The position numbers and the translations under genes are program-made. A stretch of DNA of 64,000 nt from an uncultured Nannocystaceae bacterium (GTDB lineage Bacteria > Myxococcota_A > Bradymonadia > UBA7976 > UBA1532), in assembly GCA_964384025.1 (NCBI GenBank), contig CAYLJJ010000002.1, positions 130,189 through 194,188 on the forward strand. Direction: 5' to 3'. The notes under the pieces are model-generated. The model saw nothing but the letters and a program-made list of their open reading frames with translations. It searched no databases and was not told where the DNA came from. The number at the start of each line of letters is the position of its first letter. The first letter of the stretch is position 1. Of the stretch, positions 36,701-64,000 are shown one piece after another.

Positions 36701-39700
36701 AAGTCCGCGCCATCGTTGTTCGGATCTACTGTGCCGCTTACACAGTCATCACAGAAATCGCCGTCAGAGTCCGCGCAAACATGTGGGTTAAAGGGCGCGT
36801 TGTCATCGTCATCATTTATACCGTCGTTGTCATCATCTCGATCACCCGCATTGCAAGCTCCATCGCCGTCTGTATCCACACCATCATTGGCAGGATCTAG
36901 GCTACCGCCGCTGCAGTCATCACAAGTATCACCGTCACTGTCAGCGCAGATGTTGGGATTGAGAGGAGCAGAGTCTTGGTCGTCATCGGCGCCATCGTTA
37001 TCATCATCAGCGTCGCCCAGATCACATGCACCATCGGCGTCACTATCTAGACCGTCGTCGTTGGGATTGGAGGCGCCGTTGACGCAGTCATCACAGGAAT
37101 CACCGTCGCTGTCAGCGCACACGTTGGGGTTGAGTGGATTGCCGTCGTCAGCGTCGTTGATCCCATCATTATCGTCATCCACATCACCTGCGTTACAGAG
37201 CCCATCAGCGTCCGTGTCGAGGCCATCATTGGTGAAGTCAAACGTGCCGCTCACACAATCGTCACAGGTATCGTTATCGAGATCGATGCAGACGTTGGGG
37301 TTGAGAGGTGCGCTGTCCTCAGCATCATCTACATCATCATTGTCGTCATCAGTGTCACAGGCATCGCCGCTGAGATCACCATCTGTATCAGTTTGATCAG
37401 GGTTGGGAGTGTCGATACAGTTGTCATCTACATTGGGAACACTGTCGTTGTCGTCATCGTAAAGCGTAGCGGGACAACTAAAGTTGACAGCTGTTTCAGC
37501 ACCATCATCATCGGTAACACTCAGTCTAAAATTGGCGGATCCCGCACGAGCTTCAGCTACTGTAACCTGCCAGAGCAGGGTACAATCCTCAATAATCGCT
37601 TGCTCAGGCAGCGCCACGGCGTTGCAGGTGATTATATCGGTGATGTCGGGATCGGTGATCTCCAAATCGATCTCAACCAGATCGCCATCACCAACCCCCG
37701 CTGGACAGCTTGACACCACAGCAGGCGCCACATTGTTCACGGTCACGTCGATAGTGGCCTGAGCTGAGAGCCCAGCCAGATCGGTGACGCTCACGCGGAT
37801 TTGATCAACGCGAGGACCGTCAGTGTTGGGTGTATAGGTGATCAGTGGCCCTTGATTGTCGGGATTATTCGCAAACTCTGGTGCAGGGATAATGGTGCCA
37901 GAGCCTGAGATGAGTTCATAAGAGTAGGTCATCCCGAGAACACCCTCGGGATCTTCAGCATCGATCGTGATCTGTACAGGCGCGGGTAGCGCATTGTAGG
38001 GCCCACCGACGCTATTGATCACCGGAGGCAGCTCATTCACCAGGAGTTGAATCGAGGCGGAACCATAGGAGCACTCGGTGCAGTCAGGCTGGGTCACGCC
38101 GTCATAACACTCACCGTTCCACTGAGCATCGTCACAGATCCGCACAGGCAGCGCGATGAAGTCGCCCTCAGCCATCCCGTCCAGGATCGTAAAGGTCACC
38201 GGCCCATCGGTGGCGTTCTCACCCACATCATCATAATCGCCATCGAGGTTGAGATCGATATGCATGCTGGTGATGTGTTCAGGGATGCCTGGATCCCGGT
38301 TGCCGTCGCCAGGGAACACATCATAAGCCTCATCAGGATCGTAGCTGGCGCTCAAATCGATGGTGACATCATGACCAACATAGCCACGATAGCGCGCGTT
38401 GGGGTCCGTCGGGTGCGTGATGATGATCGGTTTATGGTTATCCAAAGAGAGTTGAATCTGAACAGAGTCGTAATCATAATAGGTTCGACCACTATTGTCT
38501 GTCACGCCGAGAGTAACATTGTGGTTTTCAACATCTCCCCAACCTATATCAGAGTCATATTGGTAAACAGGTCTTTCATATGGATTATCGGTTGTAAACT
38601 CCCAGACAATCTCATCACCTGTGACATTGCCATCTCCGTTCGTGTCATCCCCAGGTTCGTCAACCACATTCCAACGAAAACTTACAATTTCGACAGCTGG
38701 ATCTAGGACATAAGACCAGGAATGATCAAAAACGATATCCATACCTGGGCCAGCAAGCTGTGGTGTTGCACGTCCATAAGGGCTAACTTCAAGCCAGCTC
38801 TGAATAATTTGAACCGACAACGCAGTTCGTTCATGGACGTTAATATATCCACCCCAACTCCAATTCCCTGACCAGTTCCAACTTCCATCAGCTCGTTGAA
38901 CCGGAAGCAAAAAGTCGGTGTAATAAGCGCTCCAGTCTTGATTGGCTCCAGCATTTGGCAAGTAACGAATCTCGGGATCGAAAGAACGCAATCCCTTTGT
39001 ATTTGCATATATGTAGTACAATCCCCAAAAACCATGTGAGGTATTCGAGATAGTTTGAATACTATTTAGATGTGAAACATGCTGCGCGTTGTTATAGTCG
39101 AATATTTCATTATCGACCCATCCATAACCAACAAGTGCGTTTCCAGAAAGTTTTGGTCCTCCATGGTGATAAGAACATGAGCCATTATTACAATAGCTCT
39201 GAAGCCATGATCTCTGGCGATCTTTAGCAAATTGGTAGGTATCCGTTCCAAACTTTCTTTCAAGAAGCCTTAATGCTTCAGGAGCCCAACCATTTGTTGA
39301 TGCATCGCTTGTACCCCCTGACATGCTACCACATGAGTAGTACCATCCACCATCTCCTCTTGCGCAATAAACTAAACCATCAGCCATATCTTGACCGAGA
39401 TCTCTAAGAGTACGATTAATAATTCCAGCATTTCCAGCTGGTGAAACATAATCAGGGTTACCAAATCCAACCATTGGTTCTACCCATGCTGTGCTTACAT
39501 AGCTCGACCAATGGCCACTTTGATCCATCAGTCCACTATTGGTCATCGAAATACCTTGGCCATTGACACCCACATTGTTATTGTCGTCGAAGCCAACATT
39601 TGTCATTGTCATCATTGTCATTAAACTGTGGATACCGCACTGAGTCATATGGCGATAATAAGGATCCGTTTCTAATCCTTCGCCATGGCCATGACCACGT

Positions 39701-40350: not shown

Positions 40351-40619
40351 CTTTACCTCCCCAGCGGTGCTCATCTCACCGCTTAAGTTTGGGCGAACCT
40401 AAACTCCGACTATACGGGGTAAACAGATCTCTGCAACAGTGGAGTTGGCCGGTCGGAGGCTACCGAATTTGATGATTGAATCATTTTCAAGGTTTACGCC
40501 CGCTCACCGCTCCGGCAATAACGTGAGTCTCATGACTGATTTTCATGACATTAGAAACCGCTAAGGTCTTGGAAGGAAGGTCTCAATTAGATTCTCCTTG
40601 GCGGCTATGTGACGAGTAG

Positions 40620-40900
40620 GGATGGAAATTTAATATCAATGCTCATCTGCACTATTTACCAGATGAACATCTTCCAAACAGCAGTAATTATATAAAAAAC
40701 AACTAGTTTTTTCTTGAAAAGACGTTTAATTAAGAGCTCTACGGTATATTAGTAGTACCAATGGGCCATAATTAGATATGGATATTGTGAAGAGAATTAC
40801 TGCATTGAATATACTATATATTAAGGGTTGGAAGCTGGGAATATAGTTCCTTTTAATAATACCAGCTGGACACTACTGAAGAGTAGAGTGATTAACAAGC
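40620..40900. promoter_or_regulatory. Anomalously AT-rich (about 30% GC) roughly 280-bp block in the 640-bp upstream region of the giant TSP3 gene; candidate promoter / UP / nucleoid-protein binding region, or a mobile remnant
   Basis: 'tttaatatcaatgctcatctgcactatttacc...atataaaaaacaactagttttttcttgaaaagacgtttaattaag...atatactatatattaagg' stands out against roughly 58% GC flanks. Confidence 0.3.
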
Positions 40901-41018
40901 TTCATCCGTGCCCATACGCTCGTCAGCGCTCCTTGCAACTCATGGCGCTCTAACATCCTATCATTGAGGAAAGATAGCCAGCACTGAGGCAAACTTTAGG
41001 AGAAGCTCAGGGGGGTGT

Positions 41019-49090: not shown

Positions 49091-51592
49091 TTAAGGGCTT
49101 TTAGAAAACCTCGTTGAGCGTCGTCTGAAGAGGAGGAGGGCTGAGAAGATCAACAGCGCGGCAGGAGGAGAATCTCCTCCCAATCGACAACTACAGCCCT
49201 CACTGTCGGGTTCATCTGGAGACTCCAGAGGGAGGACACCAGAATCAACCGGCCTCCTCTCCTGGATTTGGATGCTGCTGAAATCTGAGAGCATCCCTTT
49301 CTGATATTCGATTGTGCCTGAGTTGCCCGCGTTATCGTTAAGTTGAGCCCCATCTATAAGTTGAACAGAGTCGATATCCAGATCATAGATCCGTTCCCCT
49401 TCCCCGATCTCATAAGAGAAGCGGATTTCACGACTGTGTTTGATATCTCCAATCTCCAGTTCAGCTCCTGTATTGAGCTGGATCAGCATATTCCCTGTTA
49501 GATTGATGGGCTCAGAGAACTCCAGCCCCAATTCAATACGCTCTCCCTGATGATATGTACCGTTGGGGCTGTGGCTGTTGGCGGCGATCAACCTCGGACG
49601 TATCCCGTCGATCTGGATGCCCTTCTCAGCATTATCCCCTAGATGCCCCAGCGTAGGTAACTCTAACTCCAACGCCTGAGCGTTTAGAAACAGGCCCTCT
49701 GCTTCTAAATTCAAGGTCTCTTCACCTTCGGCGACCTGATAGAAACCCAAAAAACCATCTGAGCCCTCTGTGTTGCCGTTGGGGCTTAACTCTACGAGCT
49801 GTGAAGTGTTGAGCTGAAGTTGGAGGATGATCTGAGGCTGAACCCCTTCAAACTGGAGAAATATGGGGATTCTGTCCCCAATCCCAAAAATGCCAGGCTC
49901 TACATCTCCACGAAGTATCAGAATATTACGCTCATCAATGGTGGGAGGTGGAGGTTCTGAAGTAAAGTTCGCCCCTATACAAGGAGTGACAGGGATCCCC
50001 TCTTCAGGAATCCGCCCATCTAACATGTTCCCGGCTGGATCCGAGAGCGCATAAGGGGGATTTCCATCTTGGATAAACTCAAGTAGGGTTAGGCATTCAC
50101 AGCTTTCATTTTCCTGTATTATATATGGAATATATGCGACATGAGTTTGGATCTCCTGCATTTCATGTTGCACAGAGACCGATGCACCTGTATTTAGTCT
50201 TGCAATCAGCTCTTCTCTGACTATTACAGGTTTGTCGAACATTACTTTCAACAGCAGTTGTGTATTTGTGCCATATGTCGATGGGAATTCTATTTCTTGC
50301 CCAGTACCATCTTGATCGAGCAAATCAGCTGTTATCTCGATAATTTGAGCATCTTCATCTGGATTATGGACCTCTTGACCCACAACTATATCCATAACAT
50401 CACCATTTCGATCTATCCAATATCCATCTGGAAGGTTCAGCTCTTGGAAATCTCCACGAAGAGGAGTGCCTGAAATAAGGGTAACTCTCTCACTCTGATT
50501 AAGTCCTACCCCTCCTGCTTCTACCTGAAGGGTTCCACCATTGATAAAAGCATCGCCTATTACCTCAAATCGATCTGAATGTCCAACACCATTGACATCC
50601 ATATGTATTGCAGTTCCTTCGCTTTGAGCATAGCTGCCTTCGATCAATATATGCCCTAAATCTAGATTTCCATCTACCCACACTCCGCTGGGATGTATAT
50701 CTCCGGCGACAATATGAACATCTCCAATGATTTTTCCATCTCCTTGCAGATTAACTCCGTTTTCCCAGATAAATGATGACAATTCAGATGGAGACGATGA
50801 TATTTGACAGTTCTGCTCTAGATGGAGATCTCCTCCAAAACTAAAACTGCCATCTCCATCAAGGTCAAGATTACCTCTGAAGTCGCTATGTTCGAATATG
50901 CAAGAAGAACCCGCGCTTGAGGAGAAAAAACCAGTAATTATTGCATTTTGCAATCTAAGTGTGCTGTTTCCGTCTATATTTACTGTTCCTTGAATTTCTA
51001 GCCTTTGAAACCCTTCTCCAAGGCTTCCTGTAATAGTTAACTCGCTTCTATCGTTTACACTAACAACTCCTTCATTAAACAACCTAATCATGCTGTTGAC
51101 TGCAGCAGATATGTTCAGGTTGCCAAGGTTTTTAAGATACCCTTCACCGTTAATATCACCTGTTGCCTCTATATCTAATACTCCTTGATTAATAACAACT
51201 CCTCTGTCGATTAAGAGAGTTCCTCCTAATCGGCTTTCAGAGCCCTCTTCTAAACTCATGAACTGATTGTGATCATTCATCATGATCTTGAGGCTACCCT
51301 GAACTGTCAAGCCACCAAATATTCGGATAGAGTCGAGTTCCATCAGCTCAACATCACCGATGATATGTAAATTGGAGATTTCGATATTTGGACCGGCAGA
51401 CCAAACGGTGATCACTGACGAGTTCCCAGATAAAATAGCCGTATCTTCTCTACCGGGAATCGTCATATTCCCATCACAAGCCCAAGAGCTGGCAACATCC
51501 CAGAGAGGGTGCTCTGCCCCTTCAGCAACCCAGGTACACTCTGCAGCCCAGGACGGAGCACTCAGACAAAGTAAAAAGAGCAGGATCCTCAA
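49091..51592 (-). CDS. Secreted Gly/Asn-rich beta-helix-like (adhesin or autotransporter-passenger-like) protein with a MYXO-CTERM-like tail
   Basis: Signal MRILLFLLCLSAPSWA; low-complexity beta-solenoid-like composition; C-terminal SEGCSCRLGGDSPPAALLIFSALLLFRRRS. Confidence 0.55.
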   Translation of the reverse strand: MRILLFLLCLSAPSWAAECTWVAEGAEHPLWDVASSWACDGNMTIPGREDTAILSGNSSVITVWSAGPNIEISNLHIIGDVELMELDSIRIFGGLTVQGSLKIMMNDHNQFMSLEEGSESRLGGTLLIDRGVVINQGVLDIEATGDINGEGYLKNLGNLNISAAVNSMIRLFNEGVVSVNDRSELTITGSLGEGFQRLEIQGTVNIDGNSTLRLQNAIITGFFSSSAGSSCIFEHSDFRGNLDLDGDGSFSFGGDLHLEQNCQISSSPSELSSFIWENGVNLQGDGKIIGDVHIVAGDIHPSGVWVDGNLDLGHILIEGSYAQSEGTAIHMDVNGVGHSDRFEVIGDAFINGGTLQVEAGGVGLNQSERVTLISGTPLRGDFQELNLPDGYWIDRNGDVMDIVVGQEVHNPDEDAQIIEITADLLDQDGTGQEIEFPSTYGTNTQLLLKVMFDKPVIVREELIARLNTGASVSVQHEMQEIQTHVAYIPYIIQENESCECLTLLEFIQDGNPPYALSDPAGNMLDGRIPEEGIPVTPCIGANFTSEPPPPTIDERNILILRGDVEPGIFGIGDRIPIFLQFEGVQPQIILQLQLNTSQLVELSPNGNTEGSDGFLGFYQVAEGEETLNLEAEGLFLNAQALELELPTLGHLGDNAEKGIQIDGIRPRLIAANSHSPNGTYHQGERIELGLEFSEPINLTGNMLIQLNTGAELEIGDIKHSREIRFSYEIGEGERIYDLDIDSVQLIDGAQLNDNAGNSGTIEYQKGMLSDFSSIQIQERRPVDSGVLPLESPDEPDSEGCSCRLGGDSPPAALLIFSALLLFRRRSTRFSKSP

Positions 51593-53182: not shown

Positions 53183-55105
53183 TCACATAAAGGCCAAGCC
53201 GATCGCCAACTCTAACCAGTGCCCCTCAAACTGAAAGCCTGGATCGCTCCCCTTCATCAGACGAAAGGGCAGACGATAGCCCAGATCGATCTCCAAGGGG
53301 ATCTGTGTCCAACCCTCAGGGAGAAAAGAGAAGCCCAGACGTGGACCAAGCCCTGAGCTTTCTCCTGCATAGAGATAGGGGCCAGCGTTCACCAGGAAGC
53401 GGGCTGCCCAGCGCCAGTGAAAGAGAAAGGCGAACTCAAGGCCCTCACCCTGGTTGACCCCGAACTGGTAGCTGGTCATCCAGTTTGCGAAGTCGTCCAA
53501 CTCTGAGAGGAAGACCAAGCGCAGGCCACTCTGATCCTGGTCCTCCCCGATTCTGAGACGGTAACTGAAGAGGATCGACTGATAGGCGAAGGGAGGTGGA
53601 GGAGTGGGGAGGGTGCCCGCAGCGAGCGCTGGCTTGAGGGCATGAAGCTGATCAGGGGGGCGAAGAGCTTGAGTAGGCAGACGCTCACAGATAAAGCGCC
53701 CGATGCCTGGAGAGCTACAACCTGTGCTTGGATCTTCGAAGTTTGGCCCCTCCGCCCACTGAAGCAGGCTGGCGACGCTGGCTCCGACCAACAGGGCGCG
53801 CTGATGTCGCAGTAGGCACTCGGTGATCTCCTGGGGTCGTCGCGCCTGAGTACACTTGAGGGGACCTTGGAGGAGGGGAGGGGCCAGGAGATAGCGATCA
53901 CCATAGGCCATAAACTCTTGCTGAGCGATGGCGGTGGCGAAGCCGGTGATCACCCCATGCTGGTTATCCCGATTGTGAACATAGCGAGAATCGGAGAGCC
54001 CCCAAGCGCCGCGATCAGTGCGTATATGCCCCCCTGCGAAGCTGTCTTGGAGGAAGTGGAGCCCTGAGCCCTCCATGATCAGGGAGAGGAGCGCTGTGGC
54101 GCTCTGCTCCAAGATATTTAAGCTTCGTGGGCTTTTGGGCTGATCCAGGAGAGCTTGGAGGGGGACGCTCACTGCTTGGGTCAACTGAGGATCAGCTCGC
54201 TGAAACCAAACACCCAGGTGCTCCAGGATCAGCTGGCCAAGCAGAGCGCAGCCCAGGGCGCGTCCCTCTGTTGGTTTCAGCTCCTCCCAGTCCAGGGCCT
54301 CAAAGGGAGGATGATCTTCGGAGAGATCCTCCAGCTCCTCTGGATCGATGCCCATAGACTCCCGACAGCCTCTCCTTAAAATCTCCTGAGCTACGCCATG
54401 AAAGCCAAGCCAAGCACCGTAGGCTTCAGCGCCAAAGTGGTGATGGTTTCTGAGCACCAAATCCAGATAGTGGGGGTTATCAAAGCTGTGAGCTGTAGGA
54501 GGATCATGAGGCCCGAAAGGGGCAGGGGCACGGCGAGCATCTTGGAGGAGCCGTTTTGGGAGCGTCTCAAGAGGAGCAGCGAGAGCTTGGCTGAGCTGCT
54601 CGCGAAGCTGCGCCCAGGGAACAGGCTCTTCCGTCTCACAAGCGTCCTCAGCGACATCAGCCTCCACACCTCCAGCATCTCCAGGTTCGCTCATCCACTC
54701 CATAAGCCTCAAGCTGAGCCCAGGCCGCACCGCTCTGGGATGACCTCGAACAGGGCCAAAGAGAGAGAGATGATCAGGCAACGCCACGATATCCCCCAGG
54801 GTGATGGGATGATCCCCCGACTCCACTGGAGGCTCAGCTAAGAGATTGATGCTGCCCTCAAGCTGCTTATACTCATCTAGACAGTAGGGACGATCCCAGC
54901 GCTGGGGACAGAAGAGAGAGAGGGCCAGATAGCGCGCCAAGAGAGGATCGCTGGGAGCCTCTTTCAGGCGTTGAACTAAGCGCTTCTGAGCTTCAAAGCA
55001 GGCCTGATCGGAGAAGAAACTGTGCTCCAGATAGTCAAAGCTCCAGCTCTGAAGAGGGTAGAGGAGAGAGAGCAGCAGGAGGGCGCGGAGAGGGCTCCAA
55101 GTCAA
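53183..55105 (-). CDS. Hypothetical secreted protein
   Basis: Signal MTWSPLRALLLLSLLYPLQSWS; no recognisable catalytic motif; its start overlaps the upstream gene's stop. Confidence 0.4.
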   Translation of the reverse strand: MTWSPLRALLLLSLLYPLQSWSFDYLEHSFFSDQACFEAQKRLVQRLKEAPSDPLLARYLALSLFCPQRWDRPYCLDEYKQLEGSINLLAEPPVESGDHPITLGDIVALPDHLSLFGPVRGHPRAVRPGLSLRLMEWMSEPGDAGGVEADVAEDACETEEPVPWAQLREQLSQALAAPLETLPKRLLQDARRAPAPFGPHDPPTAHSFDNPHYLDLVLRNHHHFGAEAYGAWLGFHGVAQEILRRGCRESMGIDPEELEDLSEDHPPFEALDWEELKPTEGRALGCALLGQLILEHLGVWFQRADPQLTQAVSVPLQALLDQPKSPRSLNILEQSATALLSLIMEGSGLHFLQDSFAGGHIRTDRGAWGLSDSRYVHNRDNQHGVITGFATAIAQQEFMAYGDRYLLAPPLLQGPLKCTQARRPQEITECLLRHQRALLVGASVASLLQWAEGPNFEDPSTGCSSPGIGRFICERLPTQALRPPDQLHALKPALAAGTLPTPPPPFAYQSILFSYRLRIGEDQDQSGLRLVFLSELDDFANWMTSYQFGVNQGEGLEFAFLFHWRWAARFLVNAGPYLYAGESSGLGPRLGFSFLPEGWTQIPLEIDLGYRLPFRLMKGSDPGFQFEGHWLELAIGLAFM

Positions 55106-57060
55106 TTTTGATATTCCCGTGTCGCGAAGGGTTTTCCAGGGAGGAGCTTCCCTCCCAATAGGCGCTCTAAAGCCAAAGCCCCAGTCCAGGAGCGAAGGAG
55201 AGGCTGACCCACTCTATCTTGAGCGCGGAGAAGAAGCTGCTCCTCTGGAGCGACTTTAGAGAGCAGCTTACAGGGGAGCTGTTCACAGGAGAGGGCTTGG
55301 CGCGCTCCCTGTTGAGGGAGGTGCTGCTCCAACTGGATAGACTCCAGATCGATGGGCCCTCGGCTGTCCAGATAGAGCGCCCCCCCCCGCTCAAAGAGGA
55401 TCAAAGGGTTCAAAGCTCCCTTGAGGGGAGGACAAGAGATCCACTCCAGCTCCCAGGGATAGCTGCGATCTCGAGCCAAGGCTCGCACCTCTTTGGGGTT
55501 ATCCAGAGCGCAGCTTAGGGCGTTAAGCCAGTCGGCTAAGTCGATCCCCTCAACGCCGACATCCACCGAGAGCCCCTCTCCAAAATAGTCAATGAGGAGC
55601 TGAAGGCTACCCGCCGCGCCCAGCTCAATCTCATCAAAGGGCTCCTCTACCCGATAGCCATCATAGGAGTCCCAAAGGATCCCCCCCACAAGCTCCTCAC
55701 GGAGCAGACCCTCGAATGTCCCTGTCGTGGTTCCAAAGAAGACGGGCAAGCTCTCTCCCTGTTGAGTCACAGCCTCTAGATCGATATGGCGTGTGTCCTC
55801 CAAGAAGGTGTCGATGATGTGGGGATCATCGAGGACAAGCGCAGCGAAGAAATAGGCGAGCCCCTCGCCATAGGCAAGGCGAGGATCAACTTGATGATCT
55901 CGATGAGCGCCTCCTGGAGAGTCATCAGCGCTGTAATGGAGCACAAAATAGTGCCCAAATTCGTGGAGGATGATGTCATCATCAAACTCATCTGTGTCCT
56001 CCAGCTGCCCCCCCAATAGAATGGTGTCTCCTCCGCTGAAGCAGGAGCCACAGGGGAAGGGCAGGCCAGGTTGCCAGATGATCTTGAGGAAGGGGGCGGG
56101 TCCATCGATATGTGGCTGGATGAGCTGGAGAGCGTCATAGAGCGTATCGGCGATGTTAAAGGCACCCTCGGCGGTCCCTTGCGCTTGAATCAAGAGAGGC
56201 TCATCTCCCAAGACAGGCGCTCTCATGCTGTAGGTTGCGTTTCCTTGAAGCTCAGCAACTCGAAGCTCATTTTCACCCACCCGAACCCAAGCTTGAACCC
56301 TCAGCTCCAGCTCCCAGAGGCCATCAAAGCGGCTCTCCATCTGAAAACGACCCTCAGCGTCTGTCCAGCCCTGCTCTACTCTCAAACCACCCCGCAGCAG
56401 CTCCACAAAGAAGCCGCGCGCAGGACGCAGAGGACGTTCTCCGCTAAAACCGGTTTCATCAAAGGGTCGATCGGGATAGAGAACCTGACCCTCTAGCTCC
56501 AGCTGATAGATCTCATCAACCCTCAGGCTATAGGCCCCTCGCTGCTCAGGAGGGAGGCTTAAGGAGAAGCTGCGCGCTTCGCGCTGTTCAGAGATGAGCA
56601 AGCTCCCTGCGCGTCTTCGAGAGATTCCCGCGCCTTCTAACTCCAGGATGAGTTCTGGGGGCTCTATTCGAAAGTGGAGGCCCCGTCCGGCGAGAGCTTC
56701 AACCTCAAAGCGCTGCTCCAGGCCGCAGAGCAGCCCCTCCTGAGGTTGCCCCAGGTTGAGGGTGCGGGGTTCTTCAGGGAGGCAGGGGGTATCTGGCTGA
56801 TCAAGCTCAAAGAGAGGCGGAGCACGATCCAGGAGAGAAGCATCTCCGACCTCAGCCTCCACTGCGAGATCTTCAAGCGCCCCGAGATCTTCAATATCTT
56901 CAATGAGTTCAGGTAGATCCTCTTCAAGTTCTAAGGCGTCGAGGCGCTCAACCCCATACAGACGATCACAACTCCAGAGGAGCCCGATTAGAAACAGGAG
57001 TTGAAATCTTTGAGTTCTCAAGAGCATGACTCCAGCTCTCCAGAGGTTCCCTGGGAGCAC
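55102..57060 (-). CDS. Hypothetical exported protein with a single HExxH zincin motif (putative metalloprotease)
   Basis: DDDIILHEFGHYFVLHY; hydrophobic N-terminus. Confidence 0.4.
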   Translation of the reverse strand: MLPGNLWRAGVMLLRTQRFQLLFLIGLLWSCDRLYGVERLDALELEEDLPELIEDIEDLGALEDLAVEAEVGDASLLDRAPPLFELDQPDTPCLPEEPRTLNLGQPQEGLLCGLEQRFEVEALAGRGLHFRIEPPELILELEGAGISRRRAGSLLISEQREARSFSLSLPPEQRGAYSLRVDEIYQLELEGQVLYPDRPFDETGFSGERPLRPARGFFVELLRGGLRVEQGWTDAEGRFQMESRFDGLWELELRVQAWVRVGENELRVAELQGNATYSMRAPVLGDEPLLIQAQGTAEGAFNIADTLYDALQLIQPHIDGPAPFLKIIWQPGLPFPCGSCFSGGDTILLGGQLEDTDEFDDDIILHEFGHYFVLHYSADDSPGGAHRDHQVDPRLAYGEGLAYFFAALVLDDPHIIDTFLEDTRHIDLEAVTQQGESLPVFFGTTTGTFEGLLREELVGGILWDSYDGYRVEEPFDEIELGAAGSLQLLIDYFGEGLSVDVGVEGIDLADWLNALSCALDNPKEVRALARDRSYPWELEWISCPPLKGALNPLILFERGGALYLDSRGPIDLESIQLEQHLPQQGARQALSCEQLPCKLLSKVAPEEQLLLRAQDRVGQPLLRSWTGALALERLLGGKLLPGKPFATREYQN

Positions 57061-57184: not shown

Positions 57185-59665
57185 TCAGAATGGGATACCA
57201 TCGTCCTCAGCAGCAACTCTATGCGAGCTTAGAAATTCCACAGCGTTCTGAAGGCTCTCTCCACCCAATCCGGCGAATTCCTGCATACCTTTATCGACAG
57301 ACGCGGTGATTATTCTGCTCTGAGCGATCAGCTGGGCAGGTACGAGTTCAGGGATCAGAAAGCTAAAGTCGCCTAGATGCTTGAGGATCTCATCACCGTA
57401 AATCTGAACAATCCACTCCCAGTACACCCCGATCTCAATCTGTTCTGTACCGCTGATCTCACTCCCGCGCTCGATAAAGCTTGCCAGCAAGCTTCTGATC
57501 CGCGCCGTGCGTATCGGAGCTTTGGGTCCTACACCCGAGCAGAGCGCCGAGTAATGAGCCCACCACGCCTGATCTTTCTTCTCCCAGTCTTCACCGCGCT
57601 CCATCGGCGCATCAGGGAGCGTTAGAGAGCACCGCTGGCAGTAGAATGTTGCCATCAGCATGACCGGATCACAGAGCCCCAGACCTCCAGCTGTCAGCGG
57701 CCAGTAGAGCCAAGCATCTGGCAACGCATCGGCCCACTTCTCGAAGCGCTCGAGGAGCAGCGCCCGCAAGCGCGCTGATAGTCCCTCGCCTTCCATATGC
57801 ACACGCGCCACCGCGTGACTGATCGCGTCGAAATGTGCTGCGCCCAGCCTCGCAAAAGGCGCCATACCTCGCACGAGATAGCGCATGTAGCTGTTGTAGA
57901 TGAACACCTTCGAGAGGATCGCTTGTCCAGGACGCTCAAGGCGCTTTTGCAAGCGCTCTTCAAAGCGTTTGAGCGCAGACTCGTTCACCCCCCAATCGCC
58001 GCAGGGCTGAAGCTCCAGGAACGCCCAGCGCAGGCCGCCCCTGGGCAGCTCCTCAGGTTTGTCGCCGCCGATCACGACGGCGCCCGTCTTTTTGGCGTTC
58101 AGCGCGAAGCCAGCATCAGCGCAGAAGGCTTGGATCGCCTCCCACGCTTTCACAGCAGCTTTTGCCTCTGAGGTCACCAACACCAGGTCGTCCATAAAGC
58201 GAATAAGCTGGAGACCGCTGACCTCAAACACATACCGCTCAAGCAATCGAAGGAAGCTCTCCGCGAGCAGATAGGAGAGCGTGGAGTCGAGCGGGATCCC
58301 ACGCAGGACTTCATATACCGAGCCTTGCCGCCTCACGCGCACAGCGAGCATACGCAACATCAGCGCGATCCACCGCTCGGGAAACCCCTGAGCCTCCAGA
58401 ATCTTACGAGCGAGAGCGTGCGAAAAGGAAGGGAAGAAGAGCTTGATATCAGTCCGCAACACAACGATCGGTTTTTGGGGATCTACTGCTCGCAAGAGTC
58501 CAATTTCGCCTCCGAGAAGCATGAGCACCTTCTGCATGGCGTCGGGCTCTTCATCGGCAAAGTTGTGGCCATCATAATGTTCAGTTGTGCTCTGGTTGCG
58601 CGCCTTGGTCTTGAACTCACACATCGAGTCGGGCACAGACAACATAAAAAGCTCAGCCTGTTTTTGGAGCCTCAGACTCTCGACCGAGTTCGGCCACGGC
58701 ATCTCATCGGGTGGATAGACCCTACAAGAACAAAACCCACTGCCGCGTTGTGCAAAGAGCTGCTTCAGAACAATACCCCAACGCATTCCGATCACTGAGA
58801 GCAGAAGCTGGTTGAGTAAGCCATCCGCCAAAAATGGACGCCAGCGATCACGCGCCCATAAAAGCTCTACCTCCACCCCACCCTCGGGCCACTGCCAGCG
58901 CTCTAACCCATGGAGTAGGATGGTTAACGCACCCACGCACTCATTCACCTGTATCTCATCCAGGGCTGTGCTTCGGGCCACCGCGCAAAGCTTTGGGTTG
59001 CGGTAAGGCGAACGAGCCAACTGCAAGAGATTTCCACGCACCTCATCGCGCGAGATCTGCTGCCAGGAATCCCCTTCGGCATAAGCTTGCGTACCCTTCA
59101 CCACCACGTTCTCAGCGCCCGCATGAGCAGCTACAAGCGCATCGAAGAGCTCGAATTCAGGCGTTTCTTCCTCTTCGCTGAGAGCCATCTTGAAGAACGC
59201 TTCTCGCGCGAGTTCTCTTCCGCTTGGATTTGCTCCATCACAGTCGCTGTTTTCACAGGATTCAGCTGGATGAGGGGGCTCTTGCTCTGCGTCTCTTGGC
59301 TCTGCCCAAGCTTCAAGCAACCCACCAAAGAGCGTTCCAAAGCGCGCACGGCGTTCGCCTTCATCGAGCTCTCGATAGAGCCGCTCAATCCAGCACGCGA
59401 CGGTAGCGTCCGAGGCCACTCCCAACCGTGCTTTGTAGATCAGCGCCTCAAGATTCTGGATCTCGGGATGAAGCGGGCGTCCTGCAAAGCGGAGTTCAAG
59501 TAACCCTCTAAAGAGCAGCTCAAGCCGTGCCAGTGGTGTTTTAAGCGAGACCTCTTGGTTGGCTGCCTCGCGGATCTCAGCATAGCGCATACTCAAACGC
59601 TCGCACTGACGCTTTAACTCGTCGAGTTTGGTCTGAGCGACCCTGCGTGCAAATTCAGATTTCAC
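57185..59665 (-). CDS. Large standalone reverse transcriptase (826 aa): a roughly 380-aa N-terminal extension that begins with a coiled-coil-like segment, the RT core in the middle, and a roughly 270-aa helical C-terminal extension. Candidate defense-associated (Abi/UG/DRT-like) RT or rvt-like RT
   Basis: RT motifs 1/2 VVLRTDIKLFFPSFSHA; motif B GIPLDSTLSYLLAESFL; motif C LIRFMDDLVLV (YxDD-type FMDD); motif D/E region AGFALNAKKTGAVV. GTG start with an abutting GGAAGAAGGAAG Shine-Dalgarno. Confidence 0.85.
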   Translation of the reverse strand: MKSEFARRVAQTKLDELKRQCERLSMRYAEIREAANQEVSLKTPLARLELLFRGLLELRFAGRPLHPEIQNLEALIYKARLGVASDATVACWIERLYRELDEGERRARFGTLFGGLLEAWAEPRDAEQEPPHPAESCENSDCDGANPSGRELAREAFFKMALSEEEETPEFELFDALVAAHAGAENVVVKGTQAYAEGDSWQQISRDEVRGNLLQLARSPYRNPKLCAVARSTALDEIQVNECVGALTILLHGLERWQWPEGGVEVELLWARDRWRPFLADGLLNQLLLSVIGMRWGIVLKQLFAQRGSGFCSCRVYPPDEMPWPNSVESLRLQKQAELFMLSVPDSMCEFKTKARNQSTTEHYDGHNFADEEPDAMQKVLMLLGGEIGLLRAVDPQKPIVVLRTDIKLFFPSFSHALARKILEAQGFPERWIALMLRMLAVRVRRQGSVYEVLRGIPLDSTLSYLLAESFLRLLERYVFEVSGLQLIRFMDDLVLVTSEAKAAVKAWEAIQAFCADAGFALNAKKTGAVVIGGDKPEELPRGGLRWAFLELQPCGDWGVNESALKRFEERLQKRLERPGQAILSKVFIYNSYMRYLVRGMAPFARLGAAHFDAISHAVARVHMEGEGLSARLRALLLERFEKWADALPDAWLYWPLTAGGLGLCDPVMLMATFYCQRCSLTLPDAPMERGEDWEKKDQAWWAHYSALCSGVGPKAPIRTARIRSLLASFIERGSEISGTEQIEIGVYWEWIVQIYGDEILKHLGDFSFLIPELVPAQLIAQSRIITASVDKGMQEFAGLGGESLQNAVEFLSSHRVAAEDDGIPF

Positions 59666-60267
59666 TTCCTTCTTCCGTGCTCGACAATGTTATTGTGATG
59701 AACAAAAGCTTTTGGTTGATTCCCCAAAAAGTCACAAAAAATGTTTTTGGTTTGATCTACAAAATAAGGCTCGAAATGAATCCGATTCAACTCAAGACAA
59801 TATTATGGTTGTTTTTTGTCATCTCGTAATTTTGCTATGAAACATAGAAAAAGAGATCTTTAAGATACTCAGGTTTTGTAAATATAAGCAGTTGATAAGT
59901 TTTTATCGCAAAATCTCCAACTAACATGTAATAGTAGCATTTAGCTGGCCGAGCCAAAATGACATTTAATACCATATTATGCCATAATCCTCATTGTAGA
60001 ACCACACAATCAGCTGAAGCAAACATTTGATCTGCATATAATATAAAAAATATTAAGTTAACACTGAAAACCAACTGATTAAATCCGGTGATCTCAACAT
60101 TACATATGAAAAATCGATAACAAGTGCCAGTTCTCAGGAGCCTTGATTCTCTTTGCGCTGTAGATGAAGAGTATACTTCCTTTGACTGCATCTCCGGTCG
60201 CTGTGAGTATGGCTTCGCCTGTGATTGATCATCGGCTGTAGAGTGGAGAGGCTAGAGAATATGATCC
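59666..60267 (-). promoter_or_regulatory. A roughly 600-nt non-coding, strongly AT-rich leader between the zincin gene and the RT gene; candidate promoter plus structured non-coding RNA, as seen upstream of several defense RTs
   Basis: No convincing ORF (only 60-66 codon frames); about 30-35% GC against a roughly 58% host background; local hairpins such as CCAAAAAgtcacaaaaaatgTTTTTGG and CTATGaaaCATAG. Confidence 0.3.
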
Positions 60268-60975
60268 CTATTTGAGCACCTCACCATGAGGGAGATTCTC
60301 CCACAGCTCTGTCTGTTCAAAGTAGTCACGATCGATCGCCTTTGCCTCTCCCTGACGAGAGAACATCACCTCACTCAACATATCCAATAAGCCGTTCAAG
60401 TTTGTCTTTTCTGAAAGCTCTTCGATGACACGGTGACCCAATAACCCCATAACTTTGATCGTCACAGGGAGGACGTGCTCTGTCTTATCCTTGAAGCCGG
60501 TCATAAGCTCCTCACCGAAGGTCTCCTCATCCCAGTGTGAATATCGGGTACCTGAGCCATAATCGGTCTCGACGCGCATCGTCTGCAAGGCTGCCAGCTT
60601 GGTGATCGCCGCGTCTGTGAACTTCCCCGTCTCTGGATGGAACAGGCTCATCCATGCGTCCCAACCAAACCCAAGGGTATGTCCGATCTCATGAATGACT
60701 GTCCCTGCGATCTCATGCCCTGTAAAATCGGAGAGGTATTTTGTGTTGAACTCGACGACACCATAAACAACATCATCCCTCTTAAAGGGCTTGTAGGCTC
60801 TGGCGATCGTATTGCTCATCGCTGTAAAGACACCCAAGCGGATGACTACAGAAGAGCTGGGGATGATGTAGCGGTTCCAGAAATTGCACGCAGTTCGAGC
60901 AGCTCCTTTGAGTCGCCCATCCACATCACCGATGATCTTATAGGTGACCAAGTTATCAGCATTGAGTGTATCCAT
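60268..60975 (-). CDS. Cytoplasmic zincin-like metallopeptidase (HExxH; possible aspzincin-like third ligand in ETDYGSG), upstream of the AT-rich leader and RT
   Basis: GGAGG RBS; no signal peptide; VIHEIGHTLGFGWDAW plus downstream ETDYGSGTRYSHWDEE; GC about 49%, lower than the host. Confidence 0.6.
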   Translation of the reverse strand: MDTLNADNLVTYKIIGDVDGRLKGAARTACNFWNRYIIPSSSVVIRLGVFTAMSNTIARAYKPFKRDDVVYGVVEFNTKYLSDFTGHEIAGTVIHEIGHTLGFGWDAWMSLFHPETGKFTDAAITKLAALQTMRVETDYGSGTRYSHWDEETFGEELMTGFKDKTEHVLPVTIKVMGLLGHRVIEELSEKTNLNGLLDMLSEVMFSRQGEAKAIDRDYFEQTELWENLPHGEVLK

Positions 60976-61279
60976 CTGCTTGCCTCCATCTGCTCAACTG
61001 CTCAAGTTCGACCTATGCCTGGATCGAAAACCTAGGCAGCATGTATCACACCGTCAGAATCAATAGCTCAAACCAAAATCTTAGACAATAGCTTCGATAT
61101 GAAAAAGCTTCATAGACTCAAACTCCCCAGCAAAAAAGGATCTGTTTGAGACCCAAGATCTCAATGCTCTTATGGACGCTCATCATCGATCTGTGAATGA
61201 GCTACGCTGGACTTTTGCCATCTGAGCGGTTATGGAAATCTCCCCTCGCGATTGTGGGGCAAGCAGAAGGAGTAGGAAG

Positions 61280-61585
61280 ATGGCGGAGGCTCTAGAACAG
61301 AACATTCCTATCTTTGAGATGATCCAAGCTTTAAGGCAGGAGCTGCAAGCGTGTATCGAAGAAGGCAAAGGGCACCCTCTGAGATTTGAGCTGGGCGAGA
61401 TCGACTTAGAGCTTCAGGTTCAGGTCTCTAAGAAGAAGGCAGGAGGGCTTGATTTTAGCATCATCAAGGCGGGTATAGATCGGAGCGATATCACCACACA
61501 TATCTTTAGATTAAAGCTCAATCCGATTTTGGATGGAGATGATGGACCTATCCCAGTAAGTGATGAGGTCGTAGAACTGGATTAA
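61280..61585 (+). CDS. Small (101 aa) acidic protein translationally coupled to the trypsin-like protease gene; possible Trypco-type (trypsin-co-occurring) partner
   Basis: RBS GGAGTAGGAAG before the ATG at 61280 (the track's upstream Met at 61232 lacks an RBS); its stop lies 3 nt before the next start. Confidence 0.55.
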   Translation: MAEALEQNIPIFEMIQALRQELQACIEEGKGHPLRFELGEIDLELQVQVSKKKAGGLDFSIIKAGIDRSDITTHIFRLKLNPILDGDDGPIPVSDEVVELD

Positions 61586-61588
61586 GAT

Positions 61589-63865
61589 ATGTCCTATGAA
61601 GCGGAGCGCCTAGCTCAAATCCAAGGGAAGGGCTTTGGGACCGGCTATGACCTAGGGAATGGGCTTATCCTGACCGCCTGCCATGTGATCCAAGGGGTCA
61701 AATTTGGAGAGACTCCTCAGAGGGTTCAGGCCCGATTTCTCGATGAAGAGGGGCTAACCAACTGGCTTGAAGCTGATGAGGTCTGGTTCAGTCGCTCTCA
61801 AGATCTCTGGGTAGGCCGTATTCAGACAAGCAGAAAACTCACCTCGATAGAAAAACGTCCTCAGCACGATGGAATTGGGTTCACCATCGGTTTTCCAAGG
61901 ACCATCGCCGAAGGTGCTCGAAATCAAATCCGAGACACTCAGGGCTTGGATGTCAAGATCCAGTCAAAGGGGGGACATCGCTCCCAACGCATCCAGATCG
62001 ACTATCAAGGCGCAGCTCCACCTTCAGAAAACTGGGCGGGGCTCTCTGGAGGTCCTCTTTTCCTTGGAGATGATCTGGTCGGGGTTATCGTCAGTGTTCC
62101 TCCAAAGGCCGGTGGAGGGTTTTTATGGGCCAGCCCTCTTGACGAGATGATTAAGAACCTCCCTGTTCCCTATCATCCACCTGAATCAACCGTAGAAGGC
62201 AGGGTACCGCTCAAAATTAGACTAGAAATAGAGGGTAATCGTCTTTATGCTTACCATAGCCAGCCAAAATCGGGGAGTTTTTATAAAACTTGGAGTTCAT
62301 TAAGCGAAAGCAGGTCATTATTCACACGCTATAGCGATGGAAATGAGACTGAGGCGGATAAAGATCTGGCGTTTTCAATGCTATTTGGAGATGAATGCCA
62401 ACAAAGCAAAATTTTTCGTCATGTTTTCGGGAAAAAATTTGGCCCTGCTCCATCACCAGATCGTTACCCAATCGAACTTGATCTTATCATCTGTGATCTT
62501 GAGTTTCAGTCTTTTCCATGGACATCTTTATCTTGGAGAGGAAAGTTTATCGACAATTGGTGGATTCATGCACGATCAGGAGGAGAGAGAAGAAACATCA
62601 ACTTTCATATTCCATGTTCAGCTCTTTTGATCGGCTCTGATCTAGAAGATGTAAAGGAGCTTCTCTTAAGATACTGGCCAGTGGAAGAGAGCAAACTAAT
62701 CCAAAATGTCGAGAATTGGTCTCAAGTTGATCCGAAACGAAGATATCGGTTTATCTGGGACAAAACCGGAGAGAGCCCCCATAGGCTAAGGTATGAGCCT
62801 GAAATCCTAGTTAGAGACTCTATGCCACCATTGGTCAACTCTCCTTTGGGAGCAGCCTTCCGACTCCAGGCAGGTCGGAGATGTGAACACCATAAAATCT
62901 TGATGGATTGGCTCTATGCTTGGCTTGGAGAGAGCAATGATCCGACCCAAACTCTGAATATGCTCCCAAAAGCCCGAAGAGATCTGAGCTCTATTGGCAA
63001 ATATCAAAGTTGGAAGACAAGACGAACAGCGCGGAGGCGCCCTGTCAAAGATGCTCGATTGCGCCTAGATCGTTTCGCTGCGCGGAGTCAGGGAGGAGAG
63101 CATATTCGCGAGCTTGTCCAAAGCCCTGTACGCAAGTTAGAGATCCTCATCGGCTATGGCTCGCCGGGGAACCACGTTGACTTCTTTGGAAAGCAGCTCC
63201 GTGATCATGTGGCCTCCCAAGAGCGGATCCGTATCTGTCGAGATGAGCTGAGGTTTCCTGAGGCGCGAGGAGAGACGCTGACATCTGACACCTTTATGAG
63301 GAGCCTCCAGCGTGACCTGGAGAGCATGAAGATCGGCCCTGCTCTGCAACACAGGACACCCATCCCGAGCCGTCGTAGCGCTGCTGTATTGATGTTGGAT
63401 TTTGGTCGGATCGGGGAGGAGGAGGAACTCGATACTCGAGATGTTGGAGCCTGGATGGTCTTCTGTGCAGAGAAGCTTCTTCCTTTGGTCCCTGAGCAGT
63501 GCTGCTTTCTGGCTTATGTGGGAATTGAGACCGAGGCTTCACAGGAGACGGCTAGACCGTATATCGAGGATCTCTTTCCCAAAGGAAAAGAGGGTGCTCT
63601 GCACTGTGTTCTTTTGCCTGCCATCGGTCTAGTACCTAAGAGTGAGCTTCAGGATTTTATGAGAGAGCCCGACTTCTGCTCCTGTCCTGATGATTTAGTG
63701 GATGATATCGCCGCCCAACTTCATCAAGAGACAGGCGGAAACTACGAGAGGATCCTTAAGCGCCTAGAGAGAGCTGAACGTCGCTCTTGGAGCGAGTTAT
63801 ATGAGCGTATCAAGGATCAGCCTTCTCCTTCTCCAAGTCAGCTCAAGGCTGGGTTTAAACTATGA
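61589..63865 (+). CDS. Cytoplasmic trypsin-like (chymotrypsin-fold, S1-type) serine protease domain fused to a roughly 550-aa uncharacterised C-terminal region
   Basis: Catalytic His in GLILTACHVIQG, Ser in WAGLSGGPLFLGDDLVGVI (GDSGGP-like); no signal peptide; no P-loop found in the C-terminal part; GC about 47%. Confidence 0.7.
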   Translation: MSYEAERLAQIQGKGFGTGYDLGNGLILTACHVIQGVKFGETPQRVQARFLDEEGLTNWLEADEVWFSRSQDLWVGRIQTSRKLTSIEKRPQHDGIGFTIGFPRTIAEGARNQIRDTQGLDVKIQSKGGHRSQRIQIDYQGAAPPSENWAGLSGGPLFLGDDLVGVIVSVPPKAGGGFLWASPLDEMIKNLPVPYHPPESTVEGRVPLKIRLEIEGNRLYAYHSQPKSGSFYKTWSSLSESRSLFTRYSDGNETEADKDLAFSMLFGDECQQSKIFRHVFGKKFGPAPSPDRYPIELDLIICDLEFQSFPWTSLSWRGKFIDNWWIHARSGGERRNINFHIPCSALLIGSDLEDVKELLLRYWPVEESKLIQNVENWSQVDPKRRYRFIWDKTGESPHRLRYEPEILVRDSMPPLVNSPLGAAFRLQAGRRCEHHKILMDWLYAWLGESNDPTQTLNMLPKARRDLSSIGKYQSWKTRRTARRRPVKDARLRLDRFAARSQGGEHIRELVQSPVRKLEILIGYGSPGNHVDFFGKQLRDHVASQERIRICRDELRFPEARGETLTSDTFMRSLQRDLESMKIGPALQHRTPIPSRRSAAVLMLDFGRIGEEEELDTRDVGAWMVFCAEKLLPLVPEQCCFLAYVGIETEASQETARPYIEDLFPKGKEGALHCVLLPAIGLVPKSELQDFMREPDFCSCPDDLVDDIAAQLHQETGGNYERILKRLERAERRSWSELYERIKDQPSPSPSQLKAGFKL

Positions 63866-64000
63866 CCCTTCCATTTGATCTTCTAAAACATCGCGATGGA
63901 GAAGATATCGATAGAGATCCTGGAGCGACCCAGGCTCGACGCGATCAGCTAAAAGCCCGCAAGATCCCTCAAGATCTCTCCGACCTGAGCCTCTCAGCTC
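63862..64000 (+). CDS. 5' portion of a further gene overlapping the protease stop (ATGA), truncated by the window end
   Basis: ATG at 63862 overlapping the TGA; the frame stays open (MTLPFDLLKHRDGEDIDRDPGATQARRDQLKARKIPQDL...) to the window end. Confidence 0.4.
   Translation, partial: MTLPFDLLKHRDGEDIDRDPGATQARRDQLKARKIPQDLSDLSLSA

Follow-up and report, generated by a model that had tools for sequence, protein, structure and literature searches.

At the right end of a 64,000-nucleotide stretch of DNA from an uncultured Nannocystaceae bacterium (GenBank assembly GCA_964384025.1, contig CAYLJJ010000002.1, positions 130,189 to 194,188; hereafter the window), we found three mutually unrelated elements: a gene for an rvt-type reverse transcriptase (RT), an AT-rich spacer with a zincin gene, and the start, two and a half genes long, of a cassette that combines a diversity-generating retroelement (DGR) with a MoxR-type AAA+ ATPase. 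We consider it reasonably probable that these elements lie side by side, with a 5′ module of the cassette that is low in guanine-cytosine (GC) content and of mosaic origin. A sequence-only reading had flagged positions 59,666 to 64,000 as a compositional island, a flag that can now be replaced by a precise annotation, namely a DGR predicted to hypermutate two membrane lectin sensors that would be wired via MoxR to a trypsin-like death effector.

The analysed sequence comprises the window and 10 kb beyond it on the same contig, a 214-kb metagenomic scaffold, giving 74 kb in total. The extension is part of locus L001, and a window coordinate equals the L001 coordinate plus 51,588. Two further assemblies carry the locus and are 100% identical over 18 kb, including the first variable repeat of the DGR (VR1).

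The DGR-MoxR cassette

The cassette extends from position 61,280 to approximately 71,533 in extended window coordinates (about 10.3 kb), with its first 2.7 kb inside the window. We regard this interval as the functional unit because its layout is kept in relatives and matches published loci. A HEAT-repeat gene follows to its right, at about 72.3 kb. It begins with Trypco2 (101 aa; 61,280–61,585, plus strand; Pfam PF19631, E = 7e-15), preceded by an AGGAG motif 8 nt upstream of the ATG, and the stop codon of this gene lies 3 nt ahead of the start of a gene for a 758-aa effector scaffold with trypsin-like, mid and C-terminal domains (61,589–63,865, plus strand). The third gene encodes the MoxR-type ATPase (315 aa; 63,862–64,809 or L001 12,274–13,221, plus strand; Pfam AAA_5, E = 1.7e-14), and its ATG overlaps the scaffold stop codon (ATGA). 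It is followed by a 1066-aa sensor (L001 13,218–16,418) with three predicted transmembrane (TM) segments and a formylglycine-generating enzyme (FGE)-sulfatase domain at residues 835–1060, a helix-turn-helix (HTH) gene (HTH_17; L001 16,562–17,110) and Avd (L001 17,107–17,439; Pfam bAvd, E = 1.2e-10; NCBIfam DivGenRetAVD, E = 1.5e-12 with 47.7 bits, under the 80-bit cutoff). The 124-nt template repeat (TR; L001 17,532–17,655) sits between Avd and the DGR RT (340 aa; L001 17,720–18,742), which has IGTWMSQ at residue 211 and YQDD at residue 243. On the minus strand, the second target is a 358-aa TM protein (L001 18,869–19,945) with an FGE-sulfatase domain at residues 101–352.

Three gene pairs have start and stop codons that overlap as ATGA: scaffold and MoxR, MoxR and sensor, HTH and Avd. 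Given these overlaps and the 3-nt gap between Trypco2 and the scaffold gene, low-GC and host-like genes belong to one predicted operon, and the gene spacing shows Trypco2, scaffold, MoxR and sensor as a translationally coupled unit of four genes. The operon promoter presumably lies in the 304-nt divergent intergenic region (60,976–61,279) between the zincin gene on the minus strand and Trypco2 on the plus strand.

Walker A (GEPGTGKT) and Walker B (VVLIDE) motifs are intact in the MoxR protein, and its plasmid homologues are annotated as MoxR family ATPases. Its best NCBIfam match is the 'MadB family AAA-type ATPase' (NF047784) at 85 bits, far under the 475-bit cutoff; a literature search for 'MadB' gave no explanation of the family name. 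Pfam gave no vWA match for the 1066-aa sensor at E up to 5 and none for five homologues at E up to 0.1; the motif VLLFTDGEG in the sensor hints at a possible degenerate vWA.

The diagnostic footprint of the DGR is in its repeats. A repeat search recovered the TR and two copies of it, VR1 (L001 16,293–16,416) and VR2 (L001 18,871–18,998), each at the 3′ terminus of one lectin gene, where it closes a target of the C-type lectin (CLec)/FGE-sulfatase fold. All internal substitutions fall at TR adenines (13 of 13 in VR1 and 16 of 16 in VR2), with other differences at the repeat edges only. Hairpins are found 3′ of both VR1 (CGCGC-GAA-GCGCG; L001 16440–16470) and VR2 (CGTGC-GAA-GCACG; L001 18815–18850), each followed by a T-run and differing from one another by a compensatory C-G to T-A change, which is consistent with the hairpin of DGR target recognition. 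Judged by these features, the locus is a complete DGR with two targets, and the retroelement is apparently active.

The scaffold protein has a trypsin-like serine protease domain at residues 1–185, with an intact H32/D72/S153 triad and matches to Pfam Trypsin_2 (E = 1.4e-3) and the protease region of PADLOC LmuA (1.8e-6). It continues with a mid domain (residues 186–384; 62,144–62,740) and a C-terminal domain (residues 431–750; 62,879–63,838). A word-indexed homologue search with the 758-aa protein returned nothing, and an exhaustive profile search recovered 429 representatives, all via the mid and C-terminal domains; a profile built from 44 relatives matched the mid domain at E = 2.4e-24 (72 bits) and the C-terminal domain at 1.6e-83 (268 bits). 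The N-termini of relatives are mostly TIR domains (26–33 of 45), others being CHAT, SIR2, PNP and Schlafen, and the trypsin domain was found in none of the 149 closest representatives. No match to VMAP was obtained in the 758-aa protein (E up to 5) or in the 44 relatives (1e-3); at another locus, a canonical VMAP encoded by a flanking gene was recognised by the Pfam models VMAP-C and VMAP-M4. A single-sequence AlphaFold2 model of the protein reached a mean predicted local distance difference test (pLDDT) score of 34.7.

On an identical contig (L005 5726–8006), the Joint Genome Institute (JGI) gene caller split the 758-aa open reading frame (ORF) into fragments of 268 and 79 aa and left the low-GC middle uncalled. 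Because of this split, the representative of the cluster at 90% identity is the 268-aa fragment, an example of gene callers breaking an intact scaffold gene where its GC content drops. In an exact-sequence look-up, all proteins checked were singleton clusters from this one organism.

A metagenome scan with a single protein found nothing, and a scan seeded with twelve family members yielded 13 loci, whose genes were matched by local phmmer. All loci that are long enough encode the scaffold, MoxR (E = 1e-76 to 1e-94) and then a 1150–1220-aa sensor ending in FGS, the N-terminal part of which is homologous to that of the 1066-aa sensor (E = 1e-39 to 1e-50). In two loci, L009 and L010, the genes that come next are HTH (9e-48), Avd, RT (4e-103) and, in reverse orientation, a short FGS target, as in the present cassette. 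Identity to the relatives is 49–56% for MoxR, 20–26% for the scaffold C-terminal domain and 27–34% for the sensor. The family is patchily distributed, and the flanks of loci L008–L019 (including L009 1654–5123) hold a TrwC/TraI relaxase, an IS200 transposase, fragments of a group II intron RT/maturase and a Gp49-like toxin; one flank also holds a canonical VMAP protein. Lateral spread of such cassettes has been inferred by Doré et al. (PNAS 2024; PMC10907252) and by Kaur, Burroughs, Iyer and Aravind (eLife 2020; PMC7159879).

Searches against plasmids gave no match for the scaffold, and searches against viral contigs gave none for the scaffold family or MoxR. Plasmid homologues of MoxR are 38% identical, and one is paired with a long FGE-family gene: on the Chondrinema litorale plasmid NZ_CP111051 (L021 8959–13467), a gene for a 1183-aa formylglycine-generating-enzyme family protein is immediately preceded by one for a MoxR family ATPase. 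No scaffold gene or DGR was found in the 9-kb flanks of this pair. Since the pair stands without scaffold or DGR, it suggests that MoxR and sensor form the minimal conserved core.

We propose a mechanism in which the DGR RT and Avd would copy the TR with misincorporation at adenines, as established for DGRs and as the footprint in the sequence indicates, and the mutagenised cDNA would replace the VRs with which both lectin-fold (FGE-sulfatase/CLec) genes end on their 3′ side. This would diversify the ligand-binding face of the three-TM 1066-aa sensor and of the short 358-aa target. By analogy with systems in the literature, the diversified lectin domains may act as ligand or antigen sensors, and the MoxR AAA+ ATPase could pass the signal of ligand binding on from the sensor to the 758-aa scaffold. 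The scaffold might then free its N-terminal trypsin-like protease, with Trypco2 as a possible adaptor or partner, and the presumed outcome would be abortive, with the infected cell either killing itself by proteolysis or ceasing to grow. The three-TM topology suggests that the lectin domain and the N-terminal part of the sensor may lie on opposite sides of the membrane. The host is a social bacterium (Myxococcota), of the kind in which antigen-sensor systems have been proposed to matter, and a tractable myxobacterial example would be useful for characterising the mechanism, the scaffold family and the N-terminal part of the sensor.

Composition and origin of the low-GC tract

The whole window has a GC content of 55.4%, with 56.0% in positions 1–59,665 and 47.5% in positions 59,666–64,000. 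The deviation is concentrated in positions 59,666–62,900 (45.7%), the GC minimum among stretches of 3.2 kb in the 74 kb; only 0.1% of 3.2-kb windows are equally GC-poor, which is more than chance would give. This tract stops at approximately 62,900, inside the trypsin-like ORF; positions 62,901–64,000 have 52.5% GC and the next 7.5 kb 55.6%. Sliding-window GC and per-gene statistics reproduced the values of the sequence-only reading to within 1–3 points and bore out its description of the RT gene as host-like (56.7% GC, with 62% at third codon positions, GC3). The profile of GC and codon usage is not uniform, and the low-GC feature is real.

Within the tract, GC drops abruptly at the RT start codon and reaches its deepest point in the AT-rich spacer (59,666–60,267), which has 35.9% overall and 33.5–35.7% in 400-nt windows. 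The zincin gene (60,268–60,975) has 50.3% GC but a host-like GC3 of 61%, its low total GC being due to amino-acid composition (codon positions 1 and 2). The intergenic region 60,976–61,279 has 46.4% GC, and Trypco2 has 46.4–47.5% with a GC3 of 50%. The trypsin-like scaffold gene (61,589–63,865) averages 49.6% and falls to 40.7–41.7% at 62,200–62,800; its GC3 is 28–44% only across residues 175–400, being 28–36% in the mid domain, and the C-terminal domain is host-like. GC contents of the MoxR and sensor genes are 56.5% and 58.3%.

The codon distance to core genes (Karlin B) is 0.46 for the tract, 0.36 for the scaffold C-terminal domain and 0.17 for MoxR and sensor, the most host-like of the genes measured. 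The FYMINK/GARP amino-acid ratio is 1.13–1.24 in Trypco2 (1.13), the mid domain and the zincin (1.24), 0.5–0.8 in the remaining cassette and 0.3–0.7 in core genes. The anomaly takes in the spacer, the zincin and Trypco2 genes and that half of the scaffold gene which encodes the trypsin and mid domains, and is not a footprint of the whole cassette, the MoxR-sensor-DGR core of which is fully host-adapted.

The tract is not the sole outlier in the window. A stronger one is the gene for an 833-aa protein of unknown function, g833 (49,091–51,592, minus strand), with 45.6% GC, a GC3 of 41% (28–35% in its middle) and B = 0.43; its C-terminus is a MYXO-CTERM sorting signal, which is specific to Myxococcota and assigns the host to this phylum (TIGR03901, 20.6 bits against a cutoff of 20). 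A second dip lies at 38–41 kb, where GC is 42–49% at the GC-poor 5′ end (38–40.4 kb) of a giant 3191-aa ORF with weak MtsC/CglD-like matches (30,799–40,374, minus strand) and in the 644-nt intergenic region 40,375–41,018. The N-terminus of this giant MtsC-like adhesin has the codon usage nearest to that of the low-GC tract in the window (B = 0.26–0.28), and other intergenic regions in the window also fall to 35–42% GC. Because the outlier g833 carries a MYXO-CTERM tag, low GC is not by itself a sign of foreign DNA here, and GC or codon deviation is a poor proxy of foreign origin in this genome.

For the low-GC part of the cassette we propose a mosaic origin, in which the 5′ module and, earlier, the zincin gene came from lower-GC sources and are incompletely ameliorated; we see the chances of this as roughly balanced, the evidence for mosaic composition being moderate and that for the identity of the cassette strong. 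The part that varies between family members, being mostly TIR elsewhere, is made up here of Trypco2 and the trypsin domain. Along eight related scaffold genes the GC3 profile is flat, which makes the dip peculiar to this copy, and relatives are richer in GARP residues in their mid domain than outside it. Enrichment of AT-type amino acids at non-synonymous positions points to long residence under AT pressure and therefore favours a lower-GC source. As the GC3 of the zincin gene is already host-like, we infer that this gene is the older arrival, with Trypco2 and the mid domain coming later.

More tentatively, and with more doubt than confidence, we suggest that the mid and C-terminal domains of the scaffold define a distinct un-annotated family (at least 429 members at 50% clustering, with no Pfam model and not VMAP by sequence) which would be the true MoxR partner in loci of the clade 5A type described below. 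This copy would then have undergone a fairly recent swap, in which a Trypco2/trypsin/mid module from a low-GC donor took the place of the usual TIR head, with the junction at about 62.9 kb still visible in composition. The un-annotated scaffold family and this possible record of an effector swap are what remains of interest in the locus. Match rankings of the mid and C-terminal domains were poorly correlated (rho = 0.17, p = 0.11), at scores too low for interpretation. A separate breakpoint between the scaffold C-terminal domain and MoxR was considered and rejected, as the identities, calibrated on other pairs of cassettes, can be explained without one.

Several observations weigh against a mosaic origin and the wider interpretation of the region. 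No donor was identified, and an AT-rich amino-acid composition was seen in none of the 149 relatives that were retrieved. The trypsin domain is only mildly deviant (GC3 0.46–0.58; FYMINK/GARP 0.61), and low GC is patchy and forms no clean block. The mid domain is a conserved family domain and not a foreign insert. Identity to relatives is low across the cassette with no sharp extra break, and by the identity calibration the cassette in its entirety is just a divergent lineage. Native-looking genes (g833 and the N-terminus of the giant adhesin) deviate equally or more. The signalling steps of the proposed mechanism are wholly inferred from the literature, and neither Doré et al. 2024 (PMC10907252) nor Kaur et al. 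2020 (PMC7159879) contains an experimental test of such cassettes.

Some of these points would be accommodated if no transfer had occurred and the tract reflected native heterogeneity, with weakly constrained or weakly expressed segments drifting towards AT under AT-biased mutation. The Myxococcota-specific tag on the strongest outlier, the nearness of the tract's codon usage to that of the giant adhesin, the dips of other intergenic regions and the position of the mid domain as the least conserved part of the scaffold (72 against 268 bits for the C-terminal domain) all agree with this explanation. We nevertheless consider it rather unlikely, since the mid domain shows no GC3 dip in the eight relatives and a FYMINK/GARP ratio above 1.1 implies long exposure to AT pressure and not recent relaxation. 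Moreover, the mid domain is under purifying selection, its ORF remaining open for about 225 codons at 40% GC with a family profile match of 2e-24.

A single recent GC-poor island that reaches from 59,666 past the end of the window, inserted beside or targeted at a resident RT gene, is less likely still. It would explain the abrupt drop at the RT start codon, and the proposal that an accessory island runs past the window holds in so far as an accessory cassette does continue for 7.5 kb beyond it, to about 71,533, and belongs to a patchy family whose members in other genomes sit near genes of a relaxase, IS200 and group II introns. However, composition does not define this unit: GC is at host level (52–56%) from about 62,900 on and stays host-like through MoxR and sensor, which are coupled to the low-GC genes, and the compositional boundary falls inside an ORF. 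The GC3 of the zincin gene is host-like, and rvt genes elsewhere have unrelated neighbours. The sequence beyond 64 kb, where an integrase, a tRNA or further defence genes had been suggested, did yield further conflict-cassette genes (the DGR-MoxR part) but no mark of integration: no integrase, transposase or recombinase domains of Pfam were found in called genes between 51.6 and 73.9 kb, and no tRNA gene and no flanking direct or att-like repeats within 10 kb to the right, the only long direct repeats being those of the DGR. Over this span the locus accordingly lacks the integrase, tRNA gene and repeats of a classical island, and its composition is deviant only at 59,666–62,900.

The rvt gene, the spacer and the zincin gene

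The RT gene that adjoins the low-GC tract (57,185–59,665, minus strand) encodes an 826-aa rvt-type protein that matches PADLOC RT_UG37 (E = 9e-165) and Pfam RVT_1 and contains an FMDD catalytic motif. UG37 RTs are rvt elements, described as single-copy, protein-priming enzymes of unknown function that are rare in bacteria and have no known noncoding RNA (ncRNA; Mestre et al. 2022, PMC9226505). Like the rvt/UG37 RTs of Gladyshev and Arkhipova and of Mestre et al. 2022 (PMC9226505), the present gene has the profile match, stands alone and has a coiled-coil-looking N-terminus, which was judged by eye from its heptad-like pattern. A word-indexed search of 5.8 billion proteins with this RT returned only three matches, one of which (L003, from a Polyangiaceae metagenome-assembled genome) is fused to an ATP-grasp (R2K) domain. 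In the two other UG37 loci, the upstream spacers measure 39 and 120 nt, and no neighbours are common to the three loci. Neither these loci nor the 13 related cassettes show conserved linkage of the rvt gene to cassette or spacer. The rvt gene is a neighbour of the cassette and not one of its components, and nothing supports the earlier suggestion that it marks an integration hotspot.

Many UG/DRT RTs use an adjacent ncRNA, as retrons, DRT2, DRT9 and DRT10 do, and the AT-rich non-coding spacer, whose 602 nt (59,666–60,267) separate the stop codon of the zincin gene from the start of rvt, lies directly upstream of the RT gene on the same strand. It is nevertheless highly improbable that this spacer, which the sequence-only reading called a leader, is an ncRNA template or scaffold for the RT and that RT, spacer and proteases form one defence system, given the protein-priming, single-copy nature and lack of a known ncRNA in UG37 (Mestre et al. 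2022, PMC9226505), the short spacers and different neighbours of the two other UG37 loci, the missing RNA signal (no excess folding energy, z = 0.13; no match to Rfam) and the membership of the proteases in a separately conserved cassette. The spacer contains no ORF longer than 66 aa, no second copy of it was found, and the possibility of a miniature inverted-repeat transposable element (MITE) was rejected. A tblastn search for a gene remnant with family proteins and flanking ORFs gave matches at chance level only. In a scan for sites, promoter-like sequence occurred once, where chance would give 3.4 sites, and terminator-like sequence four times against an expectation of 1.5; none of these sites points to an RNA gene in the spacer.

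The spacer also holds two imperfect 29-nt direct repeats, CAAAAGCTTTTG (59,701–59,729) and CAAAAACATTTTTTG (59,736–59,764), which are 35 nt apart and have palindromic cores. These repeats (family D8; L001 8113–8141 and 8148–8176) occupy the stretch 36–100 nt ahead of the rvt start and may serve as an operator or regulator binding site.

On the other side of the spacer lies the gene for a 235-aa leishmanolysin-like zincin (60,268–60,975, minus strand), assigned by a match to Pfam Peptidase_M8 of 30.8 bits (cutoff 21) that covers 45 residues only. The protein carries HEIGH as its motif at residue 95, lacks both a signal peptide and TM segments, and gives weak matches to catalytic domains of matrix metalloproteinases (MMP). 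Its plasmid matches are distant and partial, annotated as 'leishmanolysin-related zinc metalloendopeptidase', and no match was found among phage sequences. Both the zincin and rvt genes are absent from the 13 related cassettes.

To the left of the rvt gene, and on the same minus strand, two overlapping genes encode proteins of unknown function with 652 aa (55,102–57,060) and 640 aa (53,183–55,105). Both lie between rvt and an extracytoplasmic function (ECF) sigma/anti-sigma pair at about 52 kb, and the 652-aa protein has a zincin-like HEFGH motif. The two proteins were compared as possible paralogues, and this was rejected. A scan of 185,000 species genomes, the source genome not among them, with the 652-aa protein found only two relatives at 28–30% identity, and no close relative of the source genome turned up in the collections searched. 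Elsewhere in the window, ARAGORN called a 92-nt tRNA-Ser(GGA) at 8457–8548 (plus strand) inside the ORF of the exonuclease VII large subunit (7408–8823), which is probably a false positive.

Comparison with described systems

The DGR resembles that of Bordetella phage BPP-1 (Mtd/bRT/Avd) in its adenine substitutions between TR and VR, Avd, an RT with the IGxxxSQ motif, a C-terminal lectin VR and a 3′ hairpin. It differs in being chromosomal and not phage-borne and in having two targets on opposite strands, and these targets are membrane sensors of a conflict system, whereas the target of BPP-1 is a tail fibre.

The parent class of the cassette consists of the vWA-MoxR-VMAP ternary systems, for which a pairing of Trypco with trypsin and DGR-diversified FGS domains were described (Kaur et al. 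2020, PMC7159879). Shared with these systems are a scaffold with an N-terminal effector, the MoxR ATPase, a large protein ending in FGS/CLec, the Trypco/trypsin pairing (Trypco2 beside the trypsin effector), the swapping of N-terminal effectors (TIR, caspase-like, trypsin) and the linkage to a DGR. In contrast to them, no Pfam VMAP-C or VMAP-M is present in the scaffold and its 44 relatives, and no vWA in the sensor and its five homologues. The cassette is a variant of these ternary systems.

The closest described loci are the MoxR-linked DGR loci of RT clade 5A, of the type of DGR 8 and DGR 9 of Thiohalocapsa PB-PSB1 (Doré et al. 2024, PMC10907252). Such loci combine two targets, a CLec protein with a long extension and a short one of CLec only, with an HTH gene and with Trypco and TIR/trypsin effectors close by; in DGR 9, the peptidase is of the trypsin type and has no canonical VMAP, and the targets contain TM segments but no vWA (Doré et al. 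2024, PMC10907252). In the present locus, MoxR likewise lies directly upstream of the CLec target with its long, domain-less N-terminal extension, and the second, short CLec-only target, the HTH gene, the adjoining Trypco2, the trypsin-like effector without canonical VMAP and the TM targets are all alike. Differences are the Myxococcota host, the deviant composition of the 5′ effector module and the rvt and zincin genes next door. The predicted gene content and layout match a clade-5A-like MoxR-linked DGR locus. The type of cassette is already described, and within a TIR-dominated family it is the trypsin/Trypco2 head of this example that stands out.

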